From IMG/VR virus record IMGVR_UViG_3300032893_000003, positions 78,633 through 142,632 of that record: a DNA stretch of 64,000 nucleotides. One strand, given 5' to 3'. Both the position numbers and the translations under genes were made by a program. Position 1 is the stretch's first letter; each line of letters opens with the position of its first letter. The notes under the pieces are model-generated. The model ran no database searches, was not told the DNA's origin, and worked only from the letters and a program-made list of their open reading frames with translations. Positions 858-32,393 of this stretch are shown piece by piece. The stretch comes from a virus (lineage: Duplodnaviria > Heunggongvirae > Uroviricota > Caudoviricetes).

Positions 858-931
858 TGGCGCTCGGGATGGGAATCGAACCCACCTAACTACTTTTAGA
901 GAGCAGCGCCTGACCGATCGGCCACCCGAGC
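858..931 (-). tRNA. tRNA with anticodon CUA (amber suppressor-type, reads UAG)
   Basis: The reverse complement reads GCTCGGGTGGCCGATCGGTCAGGCGCTGCTCTCTAAAAGTAGTTAGGTGGGTTCGATTCCCATCCCGAGCGCCA. It has a 7-bp acceptor stem GCTCGGG/CCCGAGC, a GGTTCGATTCC T-loop and an encoded CCA. The anticodon stem is CTGCT/AGTAG with a 7-nt loop CUCUAAA, placing CUA at positions 34-36. Confidence 0.7.
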
Positions 932-2648: not shown

Positions 2649-4133
2649 TTAAAACGGAACGCCTGTGCATTCCGCAAGTCTATTCCTAATCTCTGAGAAC
2701 GTTTGGAAGTTTTGAATCTTCCCGTCTAAGAACACCGTCCGAAGCAGATCATTCGGGTACTCTTCAAGAAGACTCAGACCATCCTGACATTTCAAAACGC
2801 CTGTATCAAGATCGCGATAAACAACGATGCGGCCTTTGGGCGACTTCTTAACACCACTGTCAGTTACAGGATCTTTGAACATTTGGCGCTCCTGTCCGTC
2901 TACAATACAAGCTGTTGCTTTAAGTGCTTGGCCGAGGTTATCGCGCGTATTGTGTTGATACGTGAAAGAACCAATACCGAACACAACATTCGTAGACGCA
3001 AATCCCTTTGCTTCAAGACCAGAGAGGATCTTGTCAGCAATAATAGTTGTAATCGAGTCACCATAGATAGCTCCAATATGCGGATCGAGTTGCTTATAGC
3101 CTTTTAGCGTCATAGTTCCACCAAATATCTCCCACAAGATCTCAATTGTGCCTTTCCGCTCAGCTTCAGTCTTGCCATTTGGATCGCCACAGATGATCTT
3201 TACTGGGTCGCCAGAATCAGGTCGAATGACGACCTTGCCGTCGCGATTCACGATGACATTTCTAAGATCATAGACAACTTTAGTCAGCACATCCCAGTAG
3301 TTCCATGTGTCCGACACGATTGAAACAAAACCCTTTGGGTAAAGCTCCGTGATCAAGAACTTGAAGGTTGCGTGTTCATCTTTTCCGTGAGCACACATAA
3401 CTGAGTGCTCGGTTGCGGGGATAGATGTACCAATGAGCTCCTTTTCAATGTCAGCGCCGTAGAAATGCTCAGTGTACTCGATGCTCGGTGCTGTATCAGT
3501 ACCAACAAACGAGAGAAGATGTGCCGATCCTGATCTTGTGGCTGCGTAAAGTCCCGCCATTCCGCGCATCGAAAAGTCATGCCCTTGGAATTTCACAAAG
3601 CTCGCATCACCTACGGTCTTCATTGCGTAATTGTGAAGAAGCTTTTTATAGACCTGCGCAATAGTTGCGTTATTGATCGATTGCCAGATTTCACAAGACA
3701 TGAGCGTTTCAACCCAGTTTGTGAACCAAAAGAAATCCTTTTCAGTGTTTTGAGATGTGAACATCGGCACTCGAATCGGGACCATTGTTCCTTCAGGTAG
3801 AGCACGAATGTGTAGCGGAACATAACCTAGATCGTGAAGGTCTGCTATGTGCTTAACCTCAGGGTTTTGGTCACCGAGTGTGTACTTCACAAAACGGGTA
3901 TACTTTTTTAGCACGTCATCAATAGGCTGCTTAAAGAAATGCTCGTTAAAGAAGTCAATGAGCCACTCCTGATTGAAGGCCTGAAGATTGTACATAACAG
4001 CCCCGTCAGCTCCGCCGATACGACAAGTGCGCGGTGTCCAAATGGAACTAACAACTTCAGTGTTCTTTGGATATTGTGGCCTATGGGAAAATTTGTAGAA
4101 ATCACATAGAGCCATGGCTTGCGGTGTAAACAT
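2649..4133 (-). CDS. nicotinamide phosphoribosyltransferase-family protein (NAMPT/NadV-like; candidate NARP1 Namat)
   Basis: 494 aa carrying NAMPT signature motifs DFYKFSHRPQYP, IRALPEGTMVPIRVPMFT..FWFTNWVETL and VIRPDSGDP. ATG start with RBS AAAGGAG. Confidence 0.9.
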   Translation of the reverse strand: MFTPQAMALCDFYKFSHRPQYPKNTEVVSSIWTPRTCRIGGADGAVMYNLQAFNQEWLIDFFNEHFFKQPIDDVLKKYTRFVKYTLGDQNPEVKHIADLHDLGYVPLHIRALPEGTMVPIRVPMFTSQNTEKDFFWFTNWVETLMSCEIWQSINNATIAQVYKKLLHNYAMKTVGDASFVKFQGHDFSMRGMAGLYAATRSGSAHLLSFVGTDTAPSIEYTEHFYGADIEKELIGTSIPATEHSVMCAHGKDEHATFKFLITELYPKGFVSIVSDTWNYWDVLTKVVYDLRNVIVNRDGKVVIRPDSGDPVKIICGDPNGKTEAERKGTIEILWEIFGGTMTLKGYKQLDPHIGAIYGDSITTIIADKILSGLEAKGFASTNVVFGIGSFTYQHNTRDNLGQALKATACIVDGQERQMFKDPVTDSGVKKSPKGRIVVYRDLDTGVLKCQDGLSLLEEYPNDLLRTVFLDGKIQNFQTFSEIRNRLAECTGVPF

Positions 4134-4146
4134 TTAAATCTCCTTT

Positions 4147-4434
4147 TTAATAAGAACAATAAAACCTAATAGTCTTTGCTTCTTTGGGGATATCTTTCAC
4201 TTCAATTTCAAATCCGTCACGATGATCATCGCTCCACTCTTCATGGGGTATTTCGATTTCAGCAAACTGCTCTTTGATGTATTCATCTTTGCACTCAATC
4301 TCACTACCGAAATATTCCGTCACCTCTTTTGGATAGCTTAAGCCCTCCTTGTCGCAGTACTGTTTTGCCTTCATCATCTTTTTAAATTTACCGTCAAGGT
4401 CTCGAAATCCGGTTACGTGCATAGACATTCCCAT
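4147..4434 (-). CDS. hypothetical protein between the NAMPT-like and Prs-like genes
   Basis: 95-aa acidic ORF whose start/stop overlap its neighbours (ATGA-type coupling). Confidence 0.5.
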   Translation of the reverse strand: MGMSMHVTGFRDLDGKFKKMMKAKQYCDKEGLSYPKEVTEYFGSEIECKDEYIKEQFAEIEIPHEEWSDDHRDGFEIEVKDIPKEAKTIRFYCSY

Positions 4435-5225
4435 TACTTAATCTCCCCGTCTTTTGTGAAAATACGACTAATCCCCGCATCTCTAAGTGGTTTAAGCCCC
4501 TTAGAGAAGATGCCGTGGCTGACGTATAGATAAAGTTCGCGCGCCCCGTAGGTTTTAAGCTCGTCCGCCGCTTTAATAAATGTCATGCCGCCATCACAAA
4601 TATCGTCCAGCATCAGAATATCGAGGTCACCGAGATTAGTGGCTGGCTTATCGTCACCCCACTTAACGCTAAGCCCTATGATCTCACCTGTTTGCTGATT
4701 CCTTACCTTGTTTCCTATAAGCACTTCATCCATCGGGCGCTCGATGAGCCCAGCATAGCGATTATTGGCACCCTTATCCGGAAAATAGATGCAGTGGGGC
4801 TCACACGCCGCAATAGTTTTACGAATTTCTGTCAAAGGCTGCCGGCTTCTAAGATTGTGGATAAGCTCCGAAGCCACGGGAGAATGGACATCTACGGACA
4901 TCACAAGATCGAACTTAAAAGCGTTAATCACGGTGGCAAAGGTATGTAAGGAAAAAGTGAGGCTATTATCGATCTCTTTGTCCTGTCTGGCGTAAGGTAA
5001 ATAAGGCATATCCAAGTGCTTACTTGCCCTCGGACATTCCTTGTCCAGAAGATTCTTTAGCTGAAGGACAGGCATGAGCTCGCGTTCGTAAGAAAAGTCC
5101 CATGTAATGGTATTGATCGTAATCGCCGAGTGTTTATTAAACCACTCGCCTGGAATTTTCCAAACTTGAGAAGTGCCGTCAGGAAATAGCGTCGGCGTGA
5201 CCTCGTGGTCGTTTAGCAGAATCAT
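4434..5225 (-). CDS. ribose-phosphate pyrophosphokinase (PRPP synthetase)-like protein (candidate NARP1 Adps, ADP-ribose pyrophosphokinase)
   Basis: 263 aa with the Prs-type motif SVDVHS (compare TVDLHA) and the PRPP-binding loop LMLDDICDGGMTF (compare VDDMIDTGGT). It lies immediately upstream of, and is co-transcribed with, the NAMPT-like gene. Confidence 0.8.
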   Translation of the reverse strand: MILLNDHEVTPTLFPDGTSQVWKIPGEWFNKHSAITINTITWDFSYERELMPVLQLKNLLDKECPRASKHLDMPYLPYARQDKEIDNSLTFSLHTFATVINAFKFDLVMSVDVHSPVASELIHNLRSRQPLTEIRKTIAACEPHCIYFPDKGANNRYAGLIERPMDEVLIGNKVRNQQTGEIIGLSVKWGDDKPATNLGDLDILMLDDICDGGMTFIKAADELKTYGARELYLYVSHGIFSKGLKPLRDAGISRIFTKDGEIK

Positions 5226-5517
5226 TGTGTCTCCTTATTTCTTCTAGCATTGCGAGCTTTTCATCTTCAAGCTTTTTTAAATCAATATCGTAGAACTCCG
5301 CGACAAGATCCGTGAGTTTGGCCCTGATTGGAAAGGCAAAGTCGTAATCCAACTCGCGCTTGGCATCAGCAAAGTCCTCGTTATTTTCATAGAACTCCTC
5401 TGAATAGTTTTCCATGAGGCGGATGTCTTTTGTGTCACTCAGCCATTCTATAAACTCATGAATTGCTTGGCTTTTATACTGTATATACTTTAGTTTTTCG
5501 TGCTCGGGTCGTTCCAT
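5179..5517 (-). CDS. hypothetical protein
   Basis: 112-aa acidic ORF overlapping the Prs-like start by 47 nt in another frame. Confidence 0.45.
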   Translation of the reverse strand: MERPEHEKLKYIQYKSQAIHEFIEWLSDTKDIRLMENYSEEFYENNEDFADAKRELDYDFAFPIRAKLTDLVAEFYDIDLKKLEDEKLAMLEEIRRHNDSAKRPRGHADAIS

Positions 5518-5529
5518 TGCAGATCTCCT

Positions 5530-5727
5530 TTAAGTAAAAATGGCCCAGGACTCAAATTCCTCTTCCCAGGACCAGCTAAGGGCTTCCAATCTTTTCTCAT
5601 CCTCGGCTGACATTTTTGTACCAGAAGGGGGACCGGCATAAAACACATCATGTTCTGCCGCAGTTTCGACTGTGCCGTATTTCTTCATAATTTGAAGCCC
5701 TTCGATGATTTCATCTACCGTTGCCAT
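5530..5727 (-). CDS. hypothetical protein
   Basis: 65-aa ORF with an ATG start and RBS. Confidence 0.45.
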   Translation of the reverse strand: MATVDEIIEGLQIMKKYGTVETAAEHDVFYAGPPSGTKMSAEDEKRLEALSWSWEEEFESWAIFT

Positions 5728-5752
5728 AAATCTCCTTTGTTAGCTACTTAGC

Positions 5753-6280
5753 CTATAACAGAGTTACAAGCTTTTGCGACCGGTTGAGCCAGCCATTTAA
5801 GAACTTAATTTGACCTGGATGATCAAGGACGATGTTAACGTAATATTGCTGAACCTGATGGATGAATAGGTAAAAAAAGTTAATTCTATCCATTTTGTTT
5901 ATAGCAAGTAACGACTCGCTCCCCAAATCTCCGTCAGCCGCTACGCCGGCCGCAGTTTGGGCGAAGATCGCAGCTTTGTAGTTACCGAGATTAACTGACA
6001 TATCTAAAATAGCTGTAGCAACTGAAATATCTGTAACATCATCAAGGCTCTGAGCTTTCCAGTAAAATTCCTGATAAATAGATATAGCTTCATCTTTCGT
6101 GAGATTTTGGACATCGTCTGCAGTTGGAACCGGCTGATTTTGAAGTTGTCGCCAGCGGGCTAAGTCATCAAGGGTAATGCCCCATTTCGTCGGGCCGCCA
6201 CCGTCTTCTGGATCGTCTGTGTATTCGGAACCTTCGTTTAGAAGAACGTACTCAATCGCTGTTTGAAAGTCTGCCACCAA
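5753..6280 (-). CDS. glycoside hydrolase family 108 lysozyme with a peptidoglycan-binding-like C-terminal part
   Basis: The N-terminus LNEGSEYTDDPEDGGGPTKWGIT matches the GH108 signature (EGGY.NDP.D.GG.T..GIT). The start is TTG/GTG with a GGGGGTG RBS. The stop codon is TAG. Confidence 0.8.
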   Translation of the reverse strand: MVADFQTAIEYVLLNEGSEYTDDPEDGGGPTKWGITLDDLARWRQLQNQPVPTADDVQNLTKDEAISIYQEFYWKAQSLDDVTDISVATAILDMSVNLGNYKAAIFAQTAAGVAADGDLGSESLLAINKMDRINFFYLFIHQVQQYYVNIVLDHPGQIKFLNGWLNRSQKLVTLL

Positions 6281-6918
6281 GACACCCCCGTGATAGTTCT
6301 ACTGTCCCAAACTATCTGAAAGTTCTCGCTATCGGTAGCGATATCATTCGGTGTCACGGTCGGAACTCCCAAACTCATTTTGGGAACAAAAGGGCTTTTC
6401 ACTTTGTATTTCTGACAAACCTGGTCATAGCACCACCAGACAAGCTCTGAGCAATAAAAAGCTTTCTGCCCCGAGCTGTTGTACAGAAAGTTAAAGTCGT
6501 AAGGTTTACCCACCTGAAGCTTTGCGATGTCTGAGGCTTCCTTCATAATCGTGTCTTTAAGGGCCCCAAGACCTTTTGGCTCAATGATGAGCATATAGTC
6601 CTTAGTCGTCTCGAATGTCACAAGATCCGTATCGAGCACCCCAGGAGCCTCAGCCTGACAAACGCGCTCATCGATCGCCTCCCCAGGCTGCGGCGCATAG
6701 ATCGCTGCATGCGTCCAGAAGCCAGGAATAAAAGCTGTTGTGAGGTCGCCACGGATCACCGTAATGAAGATCGACCCGGGCTTGAGGTAAGGATAGGACT
6801 GATAATAAAGAACGCCTGTGATGAGCTTGTGCGTAAAAGGTAGATGTACGCCGGATGCCCAGATGAGGAAAGGCCGGACTAGACTTAAGAACCAGCCTCG
6901 AATTGTCGCTAAATTCAT
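6238..6918 (-). CDS. putative cell-wall amidase/peptidase, permuted papain-like (NlpC/P60 superfamily, YaeF/YiiX-like)
   Basis: 226 aa with GKPYDFNFLYNSSGQKAFYCSELVWWCY resembling the permuted NlpC/P60 catalytic-Cys region. It overlaps the GH108 gene by 43 nt in a different frame. Confidence 0.45.
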   Translation of the reverse strand: MNLATIRGWFLSLVRPFLIWASGVHLPFTHKLITGVLYYQSYPYLKPGSIFITVIRGDLTTAFIPGFWTHAAIYAPQPGEAIDERVCQAEAPGVLDTDLVTFETTKDYMLIIEPKGLGALKDTIMKEASDIAKLQVGKPYDFNFLYNSSGQKAFYCSELVWWCYDQVCQKYKVKSPFVPKMSLGVPTVTPNDIATDSENFQIVWDSRTITGVSWWQTFKQRLSTFF

Positions 6919-6959
6919 AGAGTTACCTCGTTAATGTCAACTTCCACGCAATAAAAACT

Positions 6960-7220
6960 TCAGCAAATACGTTCTTTATCTATGACATTATCGATGGTTT
7001 TGATTGCCTTTTCAAGAGCGCGGAACTGAACTCGCGTTAAAGCTATGTCCGTGCGATCAAGCATATCTAATTGAGTCCTAATTTCAAGAAGTGCCTTGAC
7101 GATGGTCTCTGGCTTTTTCTTTTCAATCGTTGCGACATGATGTTTGAAGTTGGTGTCAGCTTTCCATCTGTTATATTCCATCTCTGAGGGAGAAATAAAT
7201 TTACACTCTCGACGTTGCAT
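6960..7220 (-). CDS. hypothetical protein
   Basis: 86-aa ORF overlapping the downstream gene start by 20 nt. Confidence 0.4.
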   Translation of the reverse strand: MQRRECKFISPSEMEYNRWKADTNFKHHVATIEKKKPETIVKALLEIRTQLDMLDRTDIALTRVQFRALEKAIKTIDNVIDKERIC

Positions 7221-7686
7221 AAGATCTGCTCACTTTCGCGATTGTCCATCCAATAAGTTGTTCTAAGTTTGCGGCCTGCTGGACTGCGTAGCGGCTGCAG
7301 ACAATGTCCACGTTCCCCTTGCGCCAAAATCCTTCTGGGCAGCATACGATAAGCTTTCCTGTTTTAGCATAAAGCCCAAGTTCTAGAAGAGATATGGGGG
7401 ACTTGGTTGTGGGGTCAAAGTACATCGCTATATGTGTTGCGCGCTCGAGACACGAAAGTTCCCAAGTGACCTGCTCGCGGAACTTATCATTTGATATCTT
7501 CTGTTCCCATGACGAATCCCAGTCATCGCGCCGCGGATTAAGTACGGTCACATCAAGAAACCTAAGCCTGTGTGTTATCTCTGTCTGCCAATCCACTGCC
7601 TTTCCCATCTCAATGCTGCCAGCGAGAAAGACAGAGACAATTGGCGCATCCATAGGGATTGGTTCTGGCGCTTTAACAACAATCAT
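7201..7686 (-). CDS. nucleoside 2-deoxyribosyltransferase-like protein (Rcl/DNPH1-like fold)
   Basis: 161 aa with SVFLAGSIEMGKAVDWQ...LNPRRDDW...ELGLYAKTGKLIV, matching the flavodoxin-like nucleoside deoxyribosyltransferase pattern. RBS GGAGAT. Confidence 0.55.
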   Translation of the reverse strand: MIVVKAPEPIPMDAPIVSVFLAGSIEMGKAVDWQTEITHRLRFLDVTVLNPRRDDWDSSWEQKISNDKFREQVTWELSCLERATHIAMYFDPTTKSPISLLELGLYAKTGKLIVCCPEGFWRKGNVDIVCSRYAVQQAANLEQLIGWTIAKVSRSYATSRV

Positions 7687-7741: not shown

Positions 7742-8044
7742 TTACCTTCTTTTTGGCTTTTTGTCCTCAAATTGAGCGGACAATTTCTTAGCAAAACTCT
7801 CAGTCGCTTTGTCTCCAAAGTGCTCGGCTACCTGATCAAGTGTAACCCAGCCTATAAGATGAAGTGCTTTTCGAGCAGCTTTGCCAGGAACGGCCAGACC
7901 CTCCTCGGTCGTCCCCAAAAGAACTGCATAAAACTCTTTACCTTTATGAGCTTTGTACATGGAGCGAACTGAGGTCTTCTCATCCACTGGTTCTTTTATT
8001 GTAATTGTTTTGGTATAGAAAATGTTGCCGGCGTTGATTTTCAT
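7742..8044 (-). CDS. hypothetical protein
   Basis: 100-aa ORF whose start is overlapped (ATGA) by the stop of the upstream gene. Confidence 0.5.
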   Translation of the reverse strand: MKINAGNIFYTKTITIKEPVDEKTSVRSMYKAHKGKEFYAVLLGTTEEGLAVPGKAARKALHLIGWVTLDQVAEHFGDKATESFAKKLSAQFEDKKPKRR

Positions 8045-8976
8045 AAATCTCCTTTATTTAAAATACCGTTAATGATGCCGCAAATAGCCTCGGGTGGCAA
8101 TGTACTTCCCGTTTCCCGCGGAGAGCCTCCGATAGTGTTGGATCCGCCCCAGCGATTTGCTTCCGTGATATTTTCATCTCGGTTGTTTAGTGCCTCATAG
8201 ATCTTATCAAGCGGAAAATTAATCCACGTTGATTTCCGACCTAGTACATAGATCCCGTGTCCACGATCAGATAGAAAAGCGTTGACCCCGCTTGCGAACA
8301 TGAACATTCGAGATGATGTGCTAGTTTCTTTTACAAAAGACCAGCCGTTAAAAGAATTTAGAACCTCGAAGTGTTTATTAATCGAGCATTGTCCAGCCTT
8401 TCCCATGCAATAATCGCAAATTCTACTACCAACAGAGGCTAGTATTGCCTCCATGAGGGATTGGTCGAATTGCCCGTAAGCAGCATTTTGACGAACAGAT
8501 CTATAGGGCTCAAAGATCCAGGCCATCGTTCGTAGAAACTCCGTATCTCCGAACGGATAAGTGCCGCCCGTGCAATCAAGCCTGTCGTTGCAATAAACAA
8601 GGCGGTTGATATTTGGATATGCGTGATGACCAATCTGCTCGTGATTCACAAGAAGCCAATAGGCAAGGCACGTATCTTCGTCAACGTCATTGACATAGAC
8701 ATTCGCCGTCGGAATTCCATCTTTTCTGAAAGTCTCAAAGAGTCCTAAGTTAATCTCCATATGGACCTGATCGGCTGTTGAACGTGTCGATATGCGATCG
8801 ACAAGAGAATGATGGTCGAAGTTTGCGTAAGGACCTTTAGAATCCCTGCGTGTGGGCCCATCAACAAAGCCATCAAGTGCTATCGAATAGGGCGGATAAT
8901 CTTTAGTGAATGTTTCCCAAGAAATAGTTTTCCGTGGTTCTATGTGTAAATTAATCATGTTAAATCTCCTCACCAA
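8041..8976 (-). CDS. hypothetical protein (311 aa)
   Basis: Long intact ORF with an ATG start and RBS. No confident domain assignment. Confidence 0.55.
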   Translation of the reverse strand: MVRRFNMINLHIEPRKTISWETFTKDYPPYSIALDGFVDGPTRRDSKGPYANFDHHSLVDRISTRSTADQVHMEINLGLFETFRKDGIPTANVYVNDVDEDTCLAYWLLVNHEQIGHHAYPNINRLVYCNDRLDCTGGTYPFGDTEFLRTMAWIFEPYRSVRQNAAYGQFDQSLMEAILASVGSRICDYCMGKAGQCSINKHFEVLNSFNGWSFVKETSTSSRMFMFASGVNAFLSDRGHGIYVLGRKSTWINFPLDKIYEALNNRDENITEANRWGGSNTIGGSPRETGSTLPPEAICGIINGILNKGDL

Positions 8977-9015: not shown

Positions 9016-9104
9016 TGGCGGAGGAGCCAGGATTCGAACCTGGACGGCTGTTACGCCTTGCTAGCTTAGCACGCTAGTGGTTTAACCAATTCACCCACTC
9101 TTCC
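9016..9104 (-). tRNA. tRNA-Ser (anticodon GCU), type II
   Basis: The reverse complement GGAAGAGTGGGTGAATTGGT...GGTTCGAATCCTGGCTCCTCCGCCA has anticodon stem CTAGC/GCTAG with loop GUGCUAA and a long variable arm. There is one A-C mismatch in the acceptor stem. Confidence 0.65.
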
Positions 9105-9114
9105 ATAATAAAGT

Positions 9115-9206
9115 TGGCGGAGGACCCGAGATTCGAACTCGGACGGCCTTTTCGAGCCTCGCCGGTTTTCAAGACCGGTGGTTTCGTCCATTTCACCCAA
9201 TCCTCC
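9115..9206 (-). tRNA. tRNA-Ser (anticodon UGA), type II
   Basis: The reverse complement GGAGGATTGGGTGAAATGG...CCGGTCTTGAAAACCGG...GAGTTCGAATCTCGGGTCCTCCGCCA has loop CUUGAAA and a long variable arm. Confidence 0.75.
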
Positions 9207-9212
9207 AACAAC

Positions 9213-9300
9213 TGGTGGAGAGAGGTAGATTTGAACTACCGCGGCCCCGAAGGACACCGGTTTTACAGACCGGCCGTTTCAGCCTCTCACGCATCTCTCC
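9213..9300 (-). tRNA. tRNA-Tyr (anticodon GUA), bacterial type with long variable arm
   Basis: The reverse complement GGAGAGATGCGTG...CCGGTCTGTAAAACCGG...GGTAGTTCAAATCTACCTCTCTCCACCA has loop CUGUAAA. Confidence 0.75.
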
Positions 9301-9307
9301 ACAAAAA

Positions 9308-9384
9308 TGGTCTGGGTGGCAGGATTTGAACCTGCGACTTCCTGGTTCCAGGCCAGGATCTCTACCGGACTGAGTTACACCCAG
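9308..9384 (-). tRNA. tRNA-Pro (anticodon UGG) candidate
   Basis: The reverse complement CTGGGTGTAACTCAGTCCGGTAGAGATCCTGGCCTGGAACCAGGAAGTCGCAGGTTCAAATCCTGCCACCCAGACCA has a perfect acceptor stem CTGGGTG/CACCCAG and anticodon stem CCTGG/CCAGG with loop CCUGGAA. Position 33 is an unusual C, which lowers confidence. Confidence 0.55.
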
Positions 9385-9406
9385 ATATCTAAAACAAAAC
9401 CTCCTT

Positions 9407-9484
9407 TGGTGTCGGGGGTGGGATTTGAACCCACAGCTTTACGGCTCTTAAGGCCGTTGCGTATGCCAATTCCGCCACCCCGAC
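9407..9484 (-). tRNA. tRNA-Leu-like (anticodon UAA) with an atypically short variable arm
   Basis: The reverse complement GTCGGGGTGGCGGAATTGGCATACGCAACGGCCTTAAGAGCCGTAAAGCTGTGGGTTCAAATCCCACCCCCGACACCA has a Leu-type D-arm (TGGCGGAATTGG) and an A73 discriminator. The loop is CUUAAGA. The variable region is only about 5 nt, so it is not the type II arm expected for Leu. Confidence 0.5.
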
Positions 9485-9485
9485 A

Positions 9486-9568
9486 TGGTGCCCTCAGGGA
9501 GAGTCGAACTCCCACGCTTGCGCGATCGCTTCTAAGGCGATTGTGTCTGCCAGTTCCACCACAAGGGC
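9486..9568 (-). tRNA. tRNA-Leu (anticodon UAG), type II
   Basis: The reverse complement GCCCTTGTGGTGGAACTGGCAGACACAATCGCCTTAGAAGCGATCGCGCAAGCGTGGGAGTTCGACTCTCCCTGAGGGCACCA has loop CUUAGAA and a 12-nt variable arm. Confidence 0.75.
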
Positions 9569-9573
9569 ACAAT

Positions 9574-9609
9574 AAATAAAAAAACCCTGAGGTATTAGCC
9601 CAGGGTTTT
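9574..9609 (-). terminator. rho-independent terminator-like hairpin followed by a T-run on the minus strand, directly 5' of the tRNA cluster
   Basis: The 8-bp stem AAACCCTG/CAGGGTTT with its loop is followed on the minus strand by TTTTTTTTATTTATT. Confidence 0.5.
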
Positions 9610-9851: not shown

Positions 9852-10418
9852 TCACAGATATTCTTTCCTACCACCTGATTTTATTAAATAAAACTGTTTG
9901 TTATCTTTTTCAAAATATTTATCTGGATTCTGGTAACAGGGATTAAACTCCCCAAAATTTTGTTTAATCTGCGCCGCGTACTTCTTACCCCAACTGCGCC
10001 TAACCGACCATTTCCACGACGGATCCCTGAGCTTTAAATCATATCCATCATTATTTAGTTTGGTGAAGAGTCGGTAAAAGTAGTAAGGATCATTTTCCAA
10101 AATGCCAATGCGAAATAATTTTACAGATCTTTTTTCACAGAGATACTTTTTGATATCGTCGCGATCTATTTGATTTTTATCGGTTATGTGATGCGGCCCT
10201 TGCACTTCAAATGCGATTTTATTGTTAGGTAAATAAAGATCGAGCTCTAACCTGCATCCTGTCTTGGGATTCACTAACCATTTTGGCCAGGCCCCTATAA
10301 CTATATTTTCCTCCGCTAAAAGTACGGCGGTAAGGGTGCGAAAAACTTGAACTTCGGCCTGAGATCTGCCCATAAATAGATTCTTAAAAATTGTAGCGCG
10401 GATGTCAATGCCCGGCAT
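9852..10418 (-). CDS. DUF559/Vsr-like (PD-(D/E)xK) endonuclease-domain protein, possible homing endonuclease
   Basis: The motif ELDLYLPNNKIAFEVQGPHH matches the E-D...EvDG..H pattern of DUF559/Vsr-like nucleases. The tool start at 10472 is TTG and overlaps the tmRNA, so I used the in-frame ATG at 10418. Confidence 0.55.
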   Translation of the reverse strand: MPGIDIRATIFKNLFMGRSQAEVQVFRTLTAVLLAEENIVIGAWPKWLVNPKTGCRLELDLYLPNNKIAFEVQGPHHITDKNQIDRDDIKKYLCEKRSVKLFRIGILENDPYYFYRLFTKLNNDGYDLKLRDPSWKWSVRRSWGKKYAAQIKQNFGEFNPCYQNPDKYFEKDNKQFYLIKSGGRKEYL

Positions 10419-10436
10419 CCGCGCTACAAACAAAAA

Positions 10437-10861
10437 TGGTGTAGGTAGCGGGAATCGAACCCGCGTCCACAAAAACTTTCAAACGCTCTCTACATACTTA
10501 GCCGTCTTCTGGTCAGGCTGACCCGCTTGCAGTTAAACTCGGCAAGCTCACGATTGGGGGCGGACTACACCGCCAGATCCACCAGCCCGTATTTTGCGCT
10601 ACGACGGGACCGCGCAGGATTTGCCGCGTGTTTTTATCCAGGTCACTTCAGCCAGCTCCTGGTTTTGGTGGTCTTTAGTTTCAAGGCTTCCACCGGCCCC
10701 GCGCGCTACGGATTAGGCAGCGCGAGCGACTGCAGCCTTGCGGCCGAAGTCAACGTGTACGACATTGTCGCCACTTAATAAGTTGCATCATTGATGATCC
10801 GTTCATGCTCCGGGGTATGCAAACGCTTGTCTGTATTCCGTGTCGAAACCATGTTACCCAC
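10437..10861 (-). ncRNA. ssrA: tmRNA (transfer-messenger RNA, SsrA)
   Basis: The reverse complement begins GTGGGTAACATGGTTTCGACACGG (compare the E. coli 5' end GGGGCUGAUUCUGGAUUCGACGGG). It ends ...CTAAGTATGTAGAGAGCGTTTGAAAGTTTTTGTGGACGCGGGTTCGATTCCCGCTACCTACACCA, with a tRNA-like T-arm, acceptor pairing GTGGGTA/TACCTAC and CCA. An internal ORF ends ...GCT GCA GTC GCT CGC GCT GCC TAA (AAVARAA*), consistent with a tag reading frame. Confidence 0.85.
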
Positions 10862-10869
10862 ATTAAATT

Positions 10870-11181
10870 TCAATAACTTTGAAGACGCATTTTACGCTTT
10901 TCTCTAGCCTTCTGGCAACGGCTAGGAGCCGTATGATGCTGCTGATAACGCCGAACTTTAGTCTTAAGCCGCGGCTCAAAGTACGTTTTTCGTACCCAAA
11001 GCTCGCGCTCATGCTCGATGTTCTTAAGCCTCGCTAATGCCTTCTCGTCGATCGTTGGCTTTGGGGGCTCATAGCTCCTGGCAGGCTCCCAGACATCGTT
11101 CCAGTTCACAGCCGTACCGTCGTAGACCAGGTTGTAGCTTGCAGTCGTCTGGTGGGGCCAGTTGTAGGTTACAGTCACCAT
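10870..11181 (-). CDS. hypothetical protein
   Basis: 103-aa ORF co-directional with its neighbours and starting with ATG. Confidence 0.45.
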   Translation of the reverse strand: MVTVTYNWPHQTTASYNLVYDGTAVNWNDVWEPARSYEPPKPTIDEKALARLKNIEHERELWVRKTYFEPRLKTKVRRYQQHHTAPSRCQKAREKRKMRLQSY

Positions 11182-12286: not shown

Positions 12287-13423
12287 TTACTTAATTTTAA
12301 TTCCAACACCGCCTTTACCCACACGATACTTATTCCCGCGCCATTCGATTTTTTGACCCACAAGCGTATGCGCCCACAGGGGCAAACTTAAGAGCTCACG
12401 AAGAAGCCACGCACCGATATCCTTGAAATTAAAGAATCTATCTTGCGTGGCGGATAGTGAAACCATGTCGGCCATGAACCAAAGGGTGAAATGATACGCA
12501 AGCACCTGCAGCGTATGAGCCGGATCAATGTGCTGCATAGCCACATAGGCTATAGCGCCTGAGCTAAAAAGCCCGTAAAAGGGCTCAAACAGGAAAACAA
12601 AAACATTGTGTCCTTTACGCATCCGGCCCCAGCGCACATGGCGCGTCCAGAACTTTTTAAAGCTGTAGTTTTCAAGCGTTTGTTTAATCGGGGCTGACAT
12701 TACATGCGTCTTATGACCAAGCGCCTTCATCTTCTGACCAATCATATAATCTTCAGCAAGATAGTTTCCAATCGAGTTAAGTCCACGGAATTTGCGAGCC
12801 GTAGACTTTCTAAACAGCATCGATGCCCCTATGATGATGGGGAAACCTAAAAGGTTCGCTAGGAAAATAAACCGCACATAGAACGTGCTTAAGTAAGCCA
12901 TTTCTAAATATTGACCTAGCCCTGAAGGATTTACGACCGTAGACGCAGCTGTAAGAATGCCCATTGTTTTTGTGAACCCATTACGGAGTGACCACAAGTA
13001 CTCCTTATGAGCAATTGAGTTGCTGTCGCTGATAAGAACAAGATCGTTTTTCGCTGCTTCGTAAGCCCAATAAATATTTTGAATCTTCGGATTTGTAAAA
13101 AAGCGACACGGTTTAACGATAAGCTTAGCTGGCACTCTGTAGTAATGGGCTATGAGTTTTCGAATCACATCACAAGCGGTATCTCCATAGCTTTCAACAC
13201 AGAACAGAAGCTCATCGCCTACAATGAACTCCTGTTTAAAAAACGTCTCAAGCTTTTTTTCTAAGCCTTCGCTAAAGCCCTTAACCGGTTTTAAGATGGT
13301 AATTGGTTCCATTCGGGTGAGCGATTTTGGCGGTTTAAAGTAATAATTATAAAGCACAAGCCACGCTCCGAAGACCGTGAAAAAGAGAGCTATCATCCAT
13401 GACAGCAATAGCAGCTCGTACAC
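12287..13423 (-). CDS. membrane glycosyltransferase, family 2 (GT21/ceramide-glucosyltransferase/HpnI-like)
   Basis: 378 aa with an N-terminal TM helix, ILKPVKG, the AEDYMIG (D/ED) motif and the WTRHVRWGRMRK (QxxRW-like) motif. The start is GTG with a GAGG RBS. Confidence 0.7.
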   Translation of the reverse strand: MYELLLLSWMIALFFTVFGAWLVLYNYYFKPPKSLTRMEPITILKPVKGFSEGLEKKLETFFKQEFIVGDELLFCVESYGDTACDVIRKLIAHYYRVPAKLIVKPCRFFTNPKIQNIYWAYEAAKNDLVLISDSNSIAHKEYLWSLRNGFTKTMGILTAASTVVNPSGLGQYLEMAYLSTFYVRFIFLANLLGFPIIIGASMLFRKSTARKFRGLNSIGNYLAEDYMIGQKMKALGHKTHVMSAPIKQTLENYSFKKFWTRHVRWGRMRKGHNVFVFLFEPFYGLFSSGAIAYVAMQHIDPAHTLQVLAYHFTLWFMADMVSLSATQDRFFNFKDIGAWLLRELLSLPLWAHTLVGQKIEWRGNKYRVGKGGVGIKIK

Positions 13424-18265: not shown

Positions 18266-18607
18266 TTAAGCGTCGCATACGAGAACCTTGTTATGATGCA
18301 GGTATTTGCCCACTCTCTTGAGTTTATCTGCGCGAAACTTGGTGACGTTTCGTATTGTCACATCACCAGCCTGAATGAGCAGCGCGAGGGCTGCCGATAC
18401 GTCGCCAAGCTCTTTTTCCAGATTCTCTTTATTGGTTGTCGGGTCTTTCTTACGATCAAACGGATGGCAAGATTCGTATCCATGTCGTAAGATCTTTCCA
18501 ATAATTTGTTGGACCTCAGCACACTCCTCCATTAAGAGTGCCAGCCTCTCGGCTTCGGCCGGTGTCAGTTTGTTGAAATGTACGTTATTCATATAGTCTC
18601 CTTTCAA
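18266..18607 (-). CDS. MazG-like nucleotide pyrophosphohydrolase (paralog 1)
   Basis: Contains the EExxE motif (ERLALLMEECAE), the E..D motif (ELGDV) and the shared block GKILRHGY. It is a paralog of the 44906-45238 gene. Confidence 0.65.
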   Translation of the reverse strand: MKGDYMNNVHFNKLTPAEAERLALLMEECAEVQQIIGKILRHGYESCHPFDRKKDPTTNKENLEKELGDVSAALALLIQAGDVTIRNVTKFRADKLKRVGKYLHHNKVLVCDA

Positions 18608-19134
18608 TTTCGACCAACGATGAGCTTTCTAAGCTCCTGCTGGCTATAGTCAAATTGCATATAAATCTCGGTTGTCGTTAGCCACCTATGCCCGAGCGCC
18701 CGTTGGACGAGTCTGATGTCCTTTGTGCGTTTATAAAGCCTAATAGCAAAGGTATGTCTCAGGCAATGAAGTCCTTTGTGCGCCGGACGGTATTCAACCC
18801 AAATCTGCCGAAACCTGTTGTACGTAATTGGAAAAATGAACTTCGATGCAGGCTGCACTTCAGTCATCACCCGACGAAATAGCCACTTAGGTATCGGGAT
18901 ATCCCGATCGCAACCCTCTTTCAAACCACTAACGTAAACAGATAGGTTTTTGTTATCAAGATCCTGGGGCTTAAGGTTTAAGAGTTCCTGTGCCCGAGCG
19001 CCTGTGTGCATGGCTAGCCACAGCAGCGTACAGTTCCTAGGATCTTTGTGTTTAAACTTTTCTAGGATCTGCTCGAGGTGGGCATACTCCTCGTCTGAGA
19101 GGAACTTGTGCTTTGTTAGTTTATAGCGCGCCAC
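18604..19134 (-). CDS. tyrosine recombinase (phage integrase family), catalytic domain only
   Basis: 176 aa containing the full catalytic set: TGARAQEL (Arg), HCLRHTFA (H-x-x-R), LGHRW (His) and TTTEIYMQF (Tyr). There is no N-terminal DNA-binding domain. Confidence 0.7.
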   Translation of the reverse strand: MARYKLTKHKFLSDEEYAHLEQILEKFKHKDPRNCTLLWLAMHTGARAQELLNLKPQDLDNKNLSVYVSGLKEGCDRDIPIPKWLFRRVMTEVQPASKFIFPITYNRFRQIWVEYRPAHKGLHCLRHTFAIRLYKRTKDIRLVQRALGHRWLTTTEIYMQFDYSQQELRKLIVGRN

Positions 19135-29426: not shown

Positions 29427-30080
29427 TTAGGTAGAAACCTTTGCACTTACTTTTTTTGTAAATCCGTATCCAAAGCAGCATAAAAGAAAGGCATAAAAAG
29501 CTATCTCTGGAACTTTAAAATCAGTCAGACCTTCAATAAAGATCCGAACACCCGCGATAGTGATGAGCAAATAAGCCGCATCCTCAAGTCGCGGAAACGT
29601 CTGCATAAGGGTTGCAAAAAACCCTGCCGCAAGACGCATGGCGATGATACCGACGCAACCGCCTGCCACCATGATCCAATACACATCTGTTACAGTAACA
29701 GATGCGAGAACTGAATCAGCACTAAAAGCAATGTCAGTGATCTCAACCATGAAGACGATCTTCCAGAAATGAGCCGATACCGCTTTGGTATCGGCTTCAT
29801 CCCCCTCTGAGTCATCTCCCCAGACAAAATACTTAACTGCTAAATAAAGTAGGTAGGCAGCGCCGGCAAATCTCAGCCATTGATAGGTCAAAATTTGTTG
29901 CAGGAAGAAAAGAGCAATGATCCTAAAACCAACCGCTCCCCAAATACCATAGGTCAACGCCTTGCCGCGCCGACCACTTGGCAGATGTTTTACAATGCCC
30001 GCAATTGCAAGTGCGTTGTCCATCGACAAAGCCACTTCCAAGAACACAAGTAGTAACACCATAAAAAGCTGAGATGCCAT
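29427..30080 (-). CDS. TerC-family integral membrane protein
   Basis: 217 aa, multi-TM, with LEVALSMDNALAIAGIV matching the TerC family motif. ATG start with RBS AAGGAG. Confidence 0.7.
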   Translation of the reverse strand: MASQLFMVLLLVFLEVALSMDNALAIAGIVKHLPSGRRGKALTYGIWGAVGFRIIALFFLQQILTYQWLRFAGAAYLLYLAVKYFVWGDDSEGDEADTKAVSAHFWKIVFMVEITDIAFSADSVLASVTVTDVYWIMVAGGCVGIIAMRLAAGFFATLMQTFPRLEDAAYLLITIAGVRIFIEGLTDFKVPEIAFYAFLLCCFGYGFTKKVSAKVST

Positions 30081-30212
30081 TTGCTATTCTCCTTTTAAAC
30101 TTGTTTCGATGTCCTTCTCAACGCGCTTCTTCCAAAAAAGAAGCGCGTCTTTGAACCGGACAACGAACAGGGTACCAACGACCCCAACCGCTAATCCGAA
30201 AGTAAACATGAC

Positions 30213-30890
30213 TTATTCGTCCAGCGCTGCGATCATCGCGTCAATGAGAGTGACGTTTTCCAGATCATCGACGGTTTTAGCGTTCACGATGTCGAACTTC
30301 GCCCCTTCTTTTTCCAGATGGTCGTCAAGGCGCTTTAAATAAGCAGCGGCCTTGGCGCACTTGCCAACCTGAAGGAAAGAAATCCCAGCCTCATCGTCAT
30401 GGTCAAGTTGCTTTGTGAACTTAACGATTGACGATGCTACTGCATCTTCATTATCCGGCTCACCATCGGTGACACAGACAATCATGATGCCGTTTGGCTT
30501 GGCATTCTTGGCTTTTTTGTTAGCGACATAATCGTCGAAGCAGACTTGAAGCGCTGCTGCGAGATTCGTGCTTCCTGCTGGCCAGTTTTCCGCAAACACA
30601 TCCTTCACCTTGTCGGGTGTGGTGTTCGGGTACATTTTAGCCTGGCTAGAGAAGGGAACTACGGTGATGCCGTCGGGATCGAATTCGTTCAGCTTTTTAG
30701 CCAAAGCGATCGTCGATTCCTGGCAGTAGTCCCAACGAGACTTCCCGTTAGCCGTATCGGCCTCCTCCATCGAGCCCGACTTATCGATAACTACATAGTA
30801 GTCACGATTTTGCAGACGCGCGACGGCAGCTGCCTTTGCTGCGGCAGCTGCGCTTACCGGCGCTGTCGGCTGTTGTTGTGTTGTGTCCAT
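30213..30890 (-). CDS. von Willebrand factor A (vWA) domain protein, TerY-like
   Basis: Contains the MIDAS motif VVIDKSGSM followed by a vWA-like topology (VCVTDGEPD). The tool start at 30929 is TTG; the ATG at 30890 has a GGAG RBS. Confidence 0.7.
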   Translation of the reverse strand: MDTTQQQPTAPVSAAAAAKAAAVARLQNRDYYVVIDKSGSMEEADTANGKSRWDYCQESTIALAKKLNEFDPDGITVVPFSSQAKMYPNTTPDKVKDVFAENWPAGSTNLAAALQVCFDDYVANKKAKNAKPNGIMIVCVTDGEPDNEDAVASSIVKFTKQLDHDDEAGISFLQVGKCAKAAAYLKRLDDHLEKEGAKFDIVNAKTVDDLENVTLIDAMIAALDE

Positions 30891-31077
30891 TTGTGTCTCC
30901 TTTGTTATGGGTTGATGGACTTCGTTCAAATCTCTTCGTAAATATTTTCAAAACCGTGTGGTTCTCTTGTTATCTCAATAAAGACATCGCCGTACTTTGT
31001 CTTTATCTTCCACATATCCCACTGATCAAGCTCCTTCGTCACGTACCAACGAAGGAGCTTTTTAAATAACCAGAACT

Positions 31078-31572
31078 TCATTTGGTGTTCTCGTGAGGAC
31101 TGGGATCGACTACATTTAACTTAGCAAAATCACCAAATCTCTCTTTAGCGATTTTGTTATAAGCTAGTGCGGCCTCCTCTTCTGTATGGAAGCGGCCAAT
31201 AGTCGTATTTTTTCCAGATTCTTCGATGCCAGCTAGCCACCGCTTCCTGCGTTTGCCGTTACGGTCAAAACGAACGCCTTTGTATTTGCTTACAGTACCG
31301 GGCTGCTTCCTACTGTTTCTGACATTCTCTCTAGCGGTGCATATCCGTAGGTTAATACGTCGGTTGTCTAAAGGATTTCCGTTTATGTGGTCGACAGTCA
31401 TGCCTTTAGGACATTTAGTAATAATCCTGTGAAGAAACTCCCGAACACCATCAATCGTAACTCTAACGTAGCCGTCGTGTCGAACGTACAGGGACAATTC
31501 TTTAAATCTTTCGTAAAACTCAGCATCTACTATGACATAAGACGCTGAGTTTGCTGCTTTTAGTTTTCTCAT
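31078..31572 (-). CDS. HNH homing endonuclease with an AP2 DNA-binding domain
   Basis: Contains VDHINGNPLDNRRINLRICTARENVRN (HNH) and YKGVRFDRNGKRRKRWLAGIEESGKNTTIGRFHTEEEAALAYN (AP2). Confidence 0.75.
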   Translation of the reverse strand: MRKLKAANSASYVIVDAEFYERFKELSLYVRHDGYVRVTIDGVREFLHRIITKCPKGMTVDHINGNPLDNRRINLRICTARENVRNSRKQPGTVSKYKGVRFDRNGKRRKRWLAGIEESGKNTTIGRFHTEEEAALAYNKIAKERFGDFAKLNVVDPSPHENTK

Positions 31573-32393
31573 TTTGCCACTTTATCTAAGTTAAACAGAA
31601 ATCCATTCCCGCTACCGCCCACCACAGCAGGGGTGTGACCGTCCCACTTCTGCAGTGCTTCGTACTGCAGAAGTTGGGGCGTGATGCTGTTATTCTTCAG
31701 TCTGTTAGCCTCTGCTTCACCGCGAGCGACCGCAATCGCTTTCTCAGCCTGAGCTCTAGCTTGTGCTACCTCGTTTTCAAGTTGCAAAGCTTTCTGCGTT
31801 GCTTGGATCTTGGCGTTTAAAGAATCTTGCACAGCCTCGGGCAGGCGCATAGCGCCGACACTTGCGATGCTGATAACATGGATGCCGATCGGGTCTATTT
31901 GTGCGTTAACCGCTGCCGTTACTTTTGATAACAAATCACCCTTCTGCGATCCATAGATGTCTTCAACCTTCATCGTTCCGCCAATCGCGCTAAAAGCATT
32001 CCTCACCATATTGCGTAAAACAACGTTAGTGATTTCATCGATGCCTTTGCGATAAGTTGTAAAGATGTGCGCAACCTTCGCAGGGTCAATAATGTAGGAA
32101 ATGGCGATGTCAGTGTTTATCTGAAGACCGTCCTTATCCTGAAACGTCATGGATTCATCATGAGGAGAACCTTCATGAGGCGAAGCAGTCCAGACCCAGT
32201 TCTGCTGAAACGTTGGAAAGGTATAGAGGTCCACCGTCGGGGGAAGCCAGTAGTAGCCAACGCCCACAACCTCGCTATCAACCCCTTTTGAGCCACCCAT
32301 TGTATGGACCTTGACTCCCACATAACCTGCCGGAACTTTTGAGCATCCACAGGTACTAAGCAGCAGGCCTAGTAGGACCATTATCTTTTTCAT
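31569..32393 (-). CDS. SPFH/Band-7 (stomatin/flotillin-like) lipoprotein
   Basis: A lipobox signal MKKIMVLLGLLLSTCGCS is followed by the SPFH core and a coiled-coil tail (AQARAQAEKAIAVARGEAEANRL). Confidence 0.75.
   Translation of the reverse strand: MKKIMVLLGLLLSTCGCSKVPAGYVGVKVHTMGGSKGVDSEVVGVGYYWLPPTVDLYTFPTFQQNWVWTASPHEGSPHDESMTFQDKDGLQINTDIAISYIIDPAKVAHIFTTYRKGIDEITNVVLRNMVRNAFSAIGGTMKVEDIYGSQKGDLLSKVTAAVNAQIDPIGIHVISIASVGAMRLPEAVQDSLNAKIQATQKALQLENEVAQARAQAEKAIAVARGEAEANRLKNNSITPQLLQYEALQKWDGHTPAVVGGSGNGFLFNLDKVAK

Follow-up and report, generated by a model that had tools for sequence, protein, structure and literature searches.

The window analysed here is a stretch of 64,000 nucleotides from IMG/VR virus record IMGVR_UViG_3300032893_000003 (positions 78,633 to 142,632). 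On its minus strand, at positions 10437-10861, it carries a gene for a transfer-messenger RNA (tmRNA), which is followed downstream by a nuclease gene, a transfer RNA (tRNA) array and the gene for a DHH phosphoesterase. An earlier note on this DNA, made from the letters alone, had placed a tmRNA at this locus within a phage-like gene block, and the coordinates, 5' motif and tag ending that it gave have all turned out to be exact.

The tmRNA gene and its tag reading frame

A one-piece tmRNA of 425 nt was called by ARAGORN at 10437-10861 on the minus strand, and the Rfam tmRNA model RF00023, which the earlier note had named as the means of checking its proposal, matched the same positions from end to end (model positions 1-374 of 374), scoring 106.3 bits where the gathering threshold is 47 (E=1.6e-40). 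As the two detectors are independent and returned identical coordinates, the call lies far beyond chance, and the locus, which was also read directly from the sequence, is a genuine full-length one-piece tmRNA gene. Its acceptor stem consists of seven pairs between 5' GUGGGUA and 3' UACCUAC, including a G3:U70 wobble, the feature that alanyl-tRNA synthetase (AlaRS) recognizes, and is completed by a discriminator A and an encoded CCA. The canonical 5' motif GGUUUCGACACGG is located at RNA positions 12-24. In the RF00023 alignment the T-arm (GCGGG/CCCGC) with its loop UUCGAUU (GGACGCGGGUUCGAUUCCCGC), the GGAC that precedes it and the 5' GGUUUCGAC all reach maximal posterior probability, and the elements of the elbow bound by SmpB, namely the T-arm and T-loop together with the D-loop analogue (GGUUUCGAC … GGAC), are present by sequence. 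The long helix 2 likewise pairs well and is aligned with high posterior probability. Further into the molecule, a simple single-sequence search found compact H-type pseudoknot candidates at the sites expected for pseudoknots PK2 (161-195) and PK3 (246-276), and the pseudoknotted structure of the tmRNA body is accordingly described here at the level of candidates.

The tag reading frame occupies RNA positions 90-149 (10713-10772, minus strand), as defined by the coding part reported by ARAGORN (90,149) together with the Rfam alignment. It comprises 19 codons, GDNVVHVDFGRKAAVARAA, after the resume codon GGC (Gly), and closes with a UAA stop (predicted tag peptide stretch AGDNVVHVDFGRKAAVARAA). 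In the Rfam alignment the GGC falls in the column where the consensus has its resume codon, GCA, directly after the PK1 region, and the UAA sits in the loop of a G+C-rich hairpin, GCGCGCUGC/GUAGCGCGC, which forms helix 5 in the minimum free energy fold. The ending AAVARAA*, which had been singled out as atypical, was confirmed by ARAGORN: the tag is about twice the usual length, basic rather than acidic, begins from a Gly resume codon and has R at position -3. Its C-terminus is ARAA and not ALAA, so that the terminal AA is retained without a hydrophobic residue in front of it. A scan of bacterial genomes, one per species, with the 3' motif CTAAGTATGTAGA-N18-32-GGACGCGGGTTCGATTCCCGC gave at least 120 matches; among the matches listed, position -3 in 103 bacterial tags is mostly L, with some Q or V, and natural tags ending in AQAA (Oxalobacteraceae) and AVAA were seen.

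The gene is flanked by transcription signals. A consensus scan identified a sigma-70-like promoter candidate, TTGCCA-18-TAAAAT (10889-10918, minus strand; 10 of 12 matches), which is a consensus match only and not functional evidence. A distance of 28 nt separates its end from the mature 5' end downstream, which implies a short leader that would be removed by RNase P. At the other end, an intrinsic-terminator-like hairpin (10384-10430, minus strand; inverted repeat I3) begins 8 nt past the CCA end and has perfect 14-bp arms (100% complementary) followed by AAUUUUU, with a folding energy of -25.1 kcal/mol that none of 200 shuffled sequences equalled (z=-4.7). Bracketed by these two signals, the tmRNA gene looks like a separate transcription unit with a short leader processed by RNase P.

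The 3' portion of the tmRNA had been thought to resemble the enterobacterial ssrA 3' region. A blastn search of 5,426 E. coli genomes showed no ssrA similarity and returned only the T-arm of a tRNA-Gly (E=2), so that an enterobacterial origin was rejected and the likeness is one of the generic tRNA-like end only. The 3'-motif matches listed (at least 120) came instead almost entirely from Betaproteobacteria (Burkholderiales, Nitrosomonadales, and Neisseriales). The 5' half, which was not part of the search pattern, contains GGTTTCGAC both in the present tmRNA and in 82 of 103 bacterial tmRNAs among the matches listed, almost all of them betaproteobacterial, and the two distributions together argue that the tRNA-like domain is of a type seen almost only in Betaproteobacteria among the matches listed. 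Combined with the strong AAGGAGA ribosome-binding sites on the genes of the element, this points tentatively to a host among the Betaproteobacteria; a Bacteroidota host, considered on account of the Gly resume codon, was rejected on the same two grounds. Local alignments to bacterial tmRNAs cover the last ~66 nt only, at 77-82% identity, and this segment includes the 21-nt and 13-nt blocks that served as the search pattern. The body and tag show no relation to any bacterial tmRNA retrieved, and the comparison of both with bacterial ssrA genes that the earlier note had suggested produced no match among those retrieved or in E. coli. With similarity confined to the last ~66 nt, the tmRNA gene was not recently copied from a host.

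The carrying element and the neighbouring genes

The window lies within a 175,152-bp contig (ENA ERZ27256510 k141_2144977), of which a second assembly measures 175,168 bp, and the tmRNA gene sits near 86 kb. All open reading frames (ORFs) from 1 to ~41 kb of the window share the orientation of the tmRNA, and the flanks are phage-like for tens of kb, which bears out their earlier description as co-directional and phage-like. The genes are small and dense (85% coding under code 11), and the GC content is flat at 0.43-0.49 across the window. Its predicted products include NAMPT, phosphoribosyl pyrophosphate (PRPP)-synthetase-like and nucleoside deoxyribosyltransferase-like proteins, a C92 amidase, a GH108 endolysin, a GT21 glycosyltransferase, MazG, TerC, vWA and SPFH proteins, an HNH-AP2 endonuclease and an SbcC-like protein, and further products of the element are an archaeo-eukaryotic primase (AEP)-type protein, two helicases, phosphoesterases, and Acb5- and AcrVA2-like proteins. 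This gene content argues strongly that the element is an uncultured phage of ~175 kb, or at least a phage-like element.

The AEP-type primase (1171 aa, 54471-57986) has relatives of up to 73% identity, which lie on contigs of 160-176 kb. No close relative was found among 50,697 cultured phage genomes, in which neither the tmRNA nor 25 kb of the window had any DNA similarity and a protein search with the helicase gave distant matches only, and none was found in IMG/VR by primase search or by exact or gapped tmRNA patterns. Searches for the tmRNA neighbourhood with the 305-aa DHH protein and the GT21 protein returned only distant cellular or unrelated matches (at most 60% and 42% identity, respectively), which indicates that the neighbourhood is not shared with the primase relatives (P0002-P0047), the contigs of which were examined up to a distance of 10 kb from the primase.

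Between the tmRNA and the tRNA array lies an ORF of 173 aa, counted from an MGRSQ start, that encodes a PD-(D/E)xK nuclease-like protein (9852-10373, minus strand). In the longer gene call, similarity to its 563 homologues starts only at residue ~18, which indicates that the methionine of MGRSQ is the true start and leaves the tmRNA terminator free. Residues D45, E56, D72 and K75 are invariant in the family, and the PHROG matches are to phrog_559 and to homing-endonuclease PHROGs (E=7e-6 to 9e-3). In Foldseek, the AlphaFold model (predicted local distance difference test score of 91) was closest to I-Bth0305I (3r3p), a weak match by its E value of 0.03 (probability 0.99, target template modelling score 0.68), followed by further weak matches to PvuRts1I, TnsA and AbaSI (top hits E 0.01-0.1). 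The ORF is probably a free-standing homing-type endonuclease. It had been labelled a DUF559 endonuclease, a name that is right at the level of the PD-(D/E)xK superfamily, as judged by the fold and the D/E/D/K residues, and wrong as to the family: Pfam DUF559 (PF04480) is not matched by the ORF even at E<=10, and the only match is to the restriction-endonuclease-like family DUF2726 (E=0.045), which 11 of 57 homologues also match.

The tRNA array (9016-9568, minus strand) begins 0.9 kb downstream of the tmRNA on the same strand and encodes, in the order of transcription, Leu-UAG, Leu-UAA, Pro-UGG, Tyr-GUA, Ser-UGA and Ser-GCU, the six tRNAs originally reported, all of which were recovered by ARAGORN and by Rfam (RF00005, 47-64 bits each). 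In 95 crude genes of the window, the codons read by the array account for 27% (UUA/UUG) and 23% (CUA/CUG) of Leu codons, and for 40% (AGY) and roughly half (UCA/UCG/UCU) of Ser codons. Five of the six tRNAs (Leu, Leu, Ser, Ser, and Tyr) belong to class II, with a long variable arm. The same bias is seen in the metagenomic tRNA-array contig L022 (Tyr, Leu, Ser, Leu, Leu, Trp, Ser, and Ser), which was picked up by the scan for the tmRNA acceptor pattern discussed below and is known here from its tRNAs alone; the bias may reflect codon compensation or the substitution of tRNAs that host nucleases attack. A terminator-like hairpin (11 bp and a T-run; 9581-9609, minus strand) stands after the nuclease ORF and 12 nt upstream of the first array tRNA, so that the array may need a promoter of its own or may depend on read-through and processing.

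Directly after the array comes the gene for a DHH/DHHA1-fold phosphoesterase-like protein of 305 aa (8041-8958, minus strand). It had been taken for a PTH2-like hydrolase, an identity that was rejected in favour of the DHH phosphoesterase fold; a role for this family as a tRNA-linked enzyme was rejected as well, as its homologues in cellular contigs are not beside tRNAs. Neither PTH2 (PF01981) nor Pth, SmpB or ArfB was detected by Pfam on ~60 ORFs between 0.9 and 41 kb of the window, tblastn of the window with typed-in reference sequences of these proteins had no match with an E value under 0.02, and its six frames contain no PTH2 motif. Of the translation-rescue module that had been proposed, the element-encoded tmRNA and tRNAs therefore stand and the peptidyl-tRNA hydrolase does not, and with no hydrolase or rescue factor found the module comes down to the tmRNA and tRNAs only.

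A seventh tRNA gene (858-931, minus strand; 74 nt) has the amber-suppressor-type anticodon CUA, a discriminator G and an encoded CCA (ARAGORN; Rfam tRNA 52.1 bits), and is directly preceded by an extended -10 box, TGGTATAAT, at ~933-941. All seven tRNAs of the window pass RF00005. Recoding of TAG in the window was rejected, as ORFs gain less length when TAG is read through than in the controls with TGA or TAA, and 85% of the sequence is already coding under code 11; 12 of the 95 crude genes (about 13%) end in TAG.

Other genes of the region fall into recognizable groups. The GT21 "ceramide glucosyltransferase"-like membrane protein (12287-13423, minus strand; Pfam E=8e-39) has nearest homologues that are only 41-42% identical and apparently cellular (where named, for example Bdellovibrionota), is absent from the closest relative phages, and may be the product of an accessory gene that modifies the host envelope. 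A cluster for nucleotide and NAD metabolism (2649-7686, minus strand) contains NAMPT and the PRPP-synthetase-like and nucleoside 2-deoxyribosyltransferase-like genes beside those of the C92 amidase and the GH108 endolysin. A row of TerC, vWA (TerF-like), HNH-AP2 homing endonuclease and SPFH/Band-7 genes (29427-32393, minus strand) makes up a stress- or membrane-associated set that is unusual for a phage. To the left of the window, the same element (L001) encodes S8 and C1 peptidases, a SpoU methylase and an Acb5-like protein directed against the cyclic-oligonucleotide-based antiphage signalling system (anti-CBASS).

Proposed function and alternative explanations

The phage-supplied tmRNA probably serves ordinary trans-translation, working with SmpB, AlaRS, EF-Tu and RNase P of the host and adding rescue capacity during infection. 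It would be transcribed in the infected cell, trimmed by host RNase P and 3' exonucleases, and charged with alanine by host AlaRS via G3:U70. Host SmpB and EF-Tu would then bind it and allow its entry into ribosomes stalled on broken or stop-less mRNAs, where the ribosome would resume on the internal frame, add (A)GDNVVHVDFGRKAAVARAA, terminate at the UAA and be recycled. The benefit to the phage would be extra rescue capacity at a time when host mRNA is degraded and the A/T-richer phage messages are translated with the help of the tRNA array. Expression, charging, use of SmpB and any effect on phage fitness are inferred for a gene whose location and whose tRNA-like and mRNA-like parts can be seen directly.

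Several observations weigh against this reading. Position 2:71 of the tmRNA is U:A, where 103 of 103 bacterial tmRNAs among the matches listed have G2:C71, and from what is understood of tRNA-Ala identity a U2:A71 pair could reduce charging by AlaRS. The Rfam alignment is poor, with low posterior probability, across PK2-PK4, while in the single-sequence search PK1 is weak (3+4 bp at best) and the PK4 region yields hairpins only; the fold of the whole molecule is no more stable than that of shuffled sequences (z=-1.6). No homologue of the tmRNA was retrieved that could lend covariation or conservation support. SmpB was not found within the 64-kb window of the ~175-kb element, and no virion genes lie within the window, so that the designation as a phage rests on non-structural hallmarks. 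Finally, the tag ends in ARAA in place of ALAA and is basic, and proteins that carry it may or may not be degraded.

The same tag is the starting point for an alternative, rather unlikely on balance, in which the tmRNA modulates host trans-translation, either by competing for SmpB or ribosomes or by swapping the host tag for …ARAA. ClpXP-type proteases would read …ARAA poorly, sparing truncated and possibly phage-derived proteins, or a different protease would be used, and peptidases of types S8 and C1, encoded immediately to the left of the window, would be at hand on the same element. The doubled length and basic character of the tag, its R at -3 where L prevails among the bacterial tags, and a body and tag unrelated to the bacterial tmRNAs retrieved, while the tRNA-like domain has been kept, would all suit such a role. 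A precedent for titration may be seen in phage DS6A, whose copy of the tRNA-like domain alone could titrate SmpB and so inhibit tmRNA (Hudson et al., 2014; PMC4131195). Titration pure and simple is nevertheless disfavoured by the complete mRNA-like domain with its in-frame stop, which speaks for real tagging, and the case for an altered protease fate is weakened by the retained terminal AA-COOH and by the endings AQAA in Oxalobacteraceae and RIAA in phage Marzo (see below), which indicate that position -3 is variable in presumably functional tags.

A functional coupling of the tmRNA to the tRNA(CUA), which lies 9.5 kb away on the same strand, is conceivable, given that suppressor tRNAs feed the tmRNA system via read-through, according to a citation of Ueda et al. 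(2002) in PMC3985003. In this unlikely arrangement the two RNAs would form a two-part device that takes over termination of translation and its quality control. Read-through of UAG-ended host messages and of the ~13% of element genes in the window that end in TAG would drive ribosomes to the 3' ends of mRNAs and so generate more non-stop complexes, and the phage tmRNA would clear these complexes and place the fate of …ARAA-tagged proteins under the control of the phage and not of host SspB/ClpXP.

It is quite improbable that the gene is a decaying or inactive copy, picked up together with the tRNA array and kept only by hitch-hiking, for example, beside the homing-type endonuclease. The weak alignment of PK2-PK4, which is reflected in the score of 106 bits, the PK1 of 3+4 bp at best, the unusual U2:A71 pair and tag, and accessory neighbours that are not shared with the closest relative found (73% primase identity) could all be read as signs of decay. 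Against these stand a tRNA-like domain in which every element is intact, a tag frame that is open as far as a stop in a hairpin loop, and a dedicated terminator, and the U2:A71 pair recurs in tmRNAs on other viral contigs.

The remaining alternative, that the gene marks an integration site, either as a host ssrA at a prophage boundary or as a phage attP for a betaproteobacterial ssrA, is very improbable, even though ssrA is a classic integration target, the last ~66 nt resemble the ssrA 3' ends retrieved, almost all betaproteobacterial, and a tyrosine-recombinase-like ORF of 176 aa is present in the window (18604-19134, minus strand; phrog_1 E=7e-26, Pfam Phage_integrase). That ORF adjoins a MazG-like gene, lies 7.7 kb from the tmRNA in the 5' direction and reaches about half the typical integrase length; it may encode an invertase or a resolvase or be a remnant. 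No integrase adjoins the tmRNA on its downstream side. A second copy of the last 32 nt of the tmRNA does not occur in the 64-kb window with 3 mismatches allowed, and no direct repeats that could represent attL and attR were found flanking the gene there. The gene is complete and lies in the middle of the contig, between phage-like genes that extend for more than 10 kb to one side and 50 kb to the other, the GC content of the window is uniform, and the two assemblies (175,152 and 175,168 bp) have relatives of similar size. Its mid-contig position, the lack of a duplicated 3' end and of an abutting integrase, and its own transcription signals together indicate that the tmRNA is element-encoded, as the earlier note had concluded, and the version of the alternative that invokes a host ssrA is largely refuted.

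The locus provides a well-formed but very divergent one-piece tmRNA, one more among the few that phages are known to carry, and it comes from an uncultured clade of ~175 kb without cultured relatives. The odd tag and the suppressor tRNA raise the question of whether phage tmRNAs only rescue ribosomes or also redirect the tagged proteins. Current understanding is otherwise unchanged, and the gene is a modest addition to the documented phage tmRNAs.

Comparison with known systems

Like the present RNA, the bacterial one-piece tmRNA (SsrA, RF00023) has the G3:U70 pair, the ACCA end and helix 2, places its tag frame behind the PK1 region with the stop in the loop of helix 5, and possesses a structured 3' body, predicted in the present case. 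It differs in length, with a median of 361 nt in the 103 bacterial examples among the matches listed compared to 425 nt here, and in having G2:C71 and a tag of ~10 codons ending in ALAA in place of the U2:A71 pair, GGC resume codon and 19-codon basic ARAA tag of the present gene, which moreover is carried by a phage-like element.

The neighbouring nuclease resembles homing endonucleases of the I-Bth0305I type (Vsr-like, PD-(D/E)xK) in its core and its D, E, D and K residues, and its best structural match is the catalytic domain of I-Bth0305I itself, though this match is weak (E=0.03, 17-20% identity) and the nuclease is known here from its sequence and a model alone. Free-standing homing endonucleases occur in phage tRNA clusters, T4 SegB being one example, and in being free-standing among tRNA genes the present ORF is comparable to SegB as a functional analogue.

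Phage ssrA genes have been described in eight mycobacteriophages of the Bxz1 group and in Bacillus phage G (Hudson et al., 2014; PMC4131195), and tmRNAs as well as SmpB have been reported in huge phages (Al-Shayeb et al., 2020; PMC7162821). The element studied here has in common with the latter that it is a large uncultured phage with translation-related RNAs, including tmRNA and tRNAs, but at ~175 kb it falls under the 200-kb cutoff, and its 64-kb window yielded no SmpB.

Among cultured phages, the best match to the 3' domain in the collection searched came from the ~160-kb Menderavirus phages of Stenotrophomonas. One of these, phage Marzo (MZ326868), encodes a two-piece (permuted) tmRNA (RF04321, 119 bits; RF01850, 94.6 bits) with the tag …ANDDSYTVRIAA, in the array HNH endonuclease, tRNA-Pro(UGG), tRNA-Leu(UAG), tmRNA and tRNA-Thr. 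The likeness to the present locus lies in the adjoining homing-type endonuclease, tRNA-Pro(UGG) and tRNA-Leu(UAG) and in a tag with R near its C-terminus (…VRIAA). The differences are that the tmRNA is in two pieces in Marzo and in one piece here, that the similarity extends over only 44 nt of the tRNA-like domain (86%), and that the genomes have no detectable relation at the DNA level. Menderavirus phages such as Marzo, the Bxz1 group and Bacillus phage G all likewise carry their tmRNA in or beside a tRNA array in a large genome (at least ~160 kb) of virulent type.

Scans for the U2:A71 acceptor identified further tmRNAs on the metagenomic phage contigs L009, which carries a major capsid protein gene, and L012, which carries portal, capsid and RNA ligase genes; of nine IMG/VR contigs, eight likewise carried a tmRNA. 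In L012 the tmRNA lies within a tRNA array beside tRNA-Leu(UAA) and tRNA-Leu(UAG). The tmRNAs of L009, L012, L018 and L027 and of the IMG/VR contigs L157, L160, L161 and L164 share with the present one the U2:A71 acceptor GUGGG…CCUACACCA and a similar 5' end, GUGGGUGACAUGG…, but their bodies are 256-370 nt long and unalignable outside the tRNA-like domain, and their tags differ. As the U2:A71 acceptor was the search criterion, its sharing is not independent evidence of kinship. Three of these genes encode short one-piece tmRNAs that pass the Rfam threshold and were missed by ARAGORN at its default settings, at L012 445-700 (plus strand; 256 nt, 85 bits), L018 3323-3648 (minus strand; ~325 nt, 59.6 bits) and L027 3414-3738 (minus strand; ~325 nt, 54.6 bits); their predicted tags are non-canonical, and IMG/VR lists the contig of L027 among its viral contigs (L160). 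These genes hint that reduced phage tmRNAs with the GUGGGUGA… U2:A71 acceptor form a larger group than has been catalogued. The layout of a tmRNA with a tRNA array and a homing-type nuclease is thus a recurring one, and since the carriage of tmRNA by phages is already known, the present locus is a further example of it.

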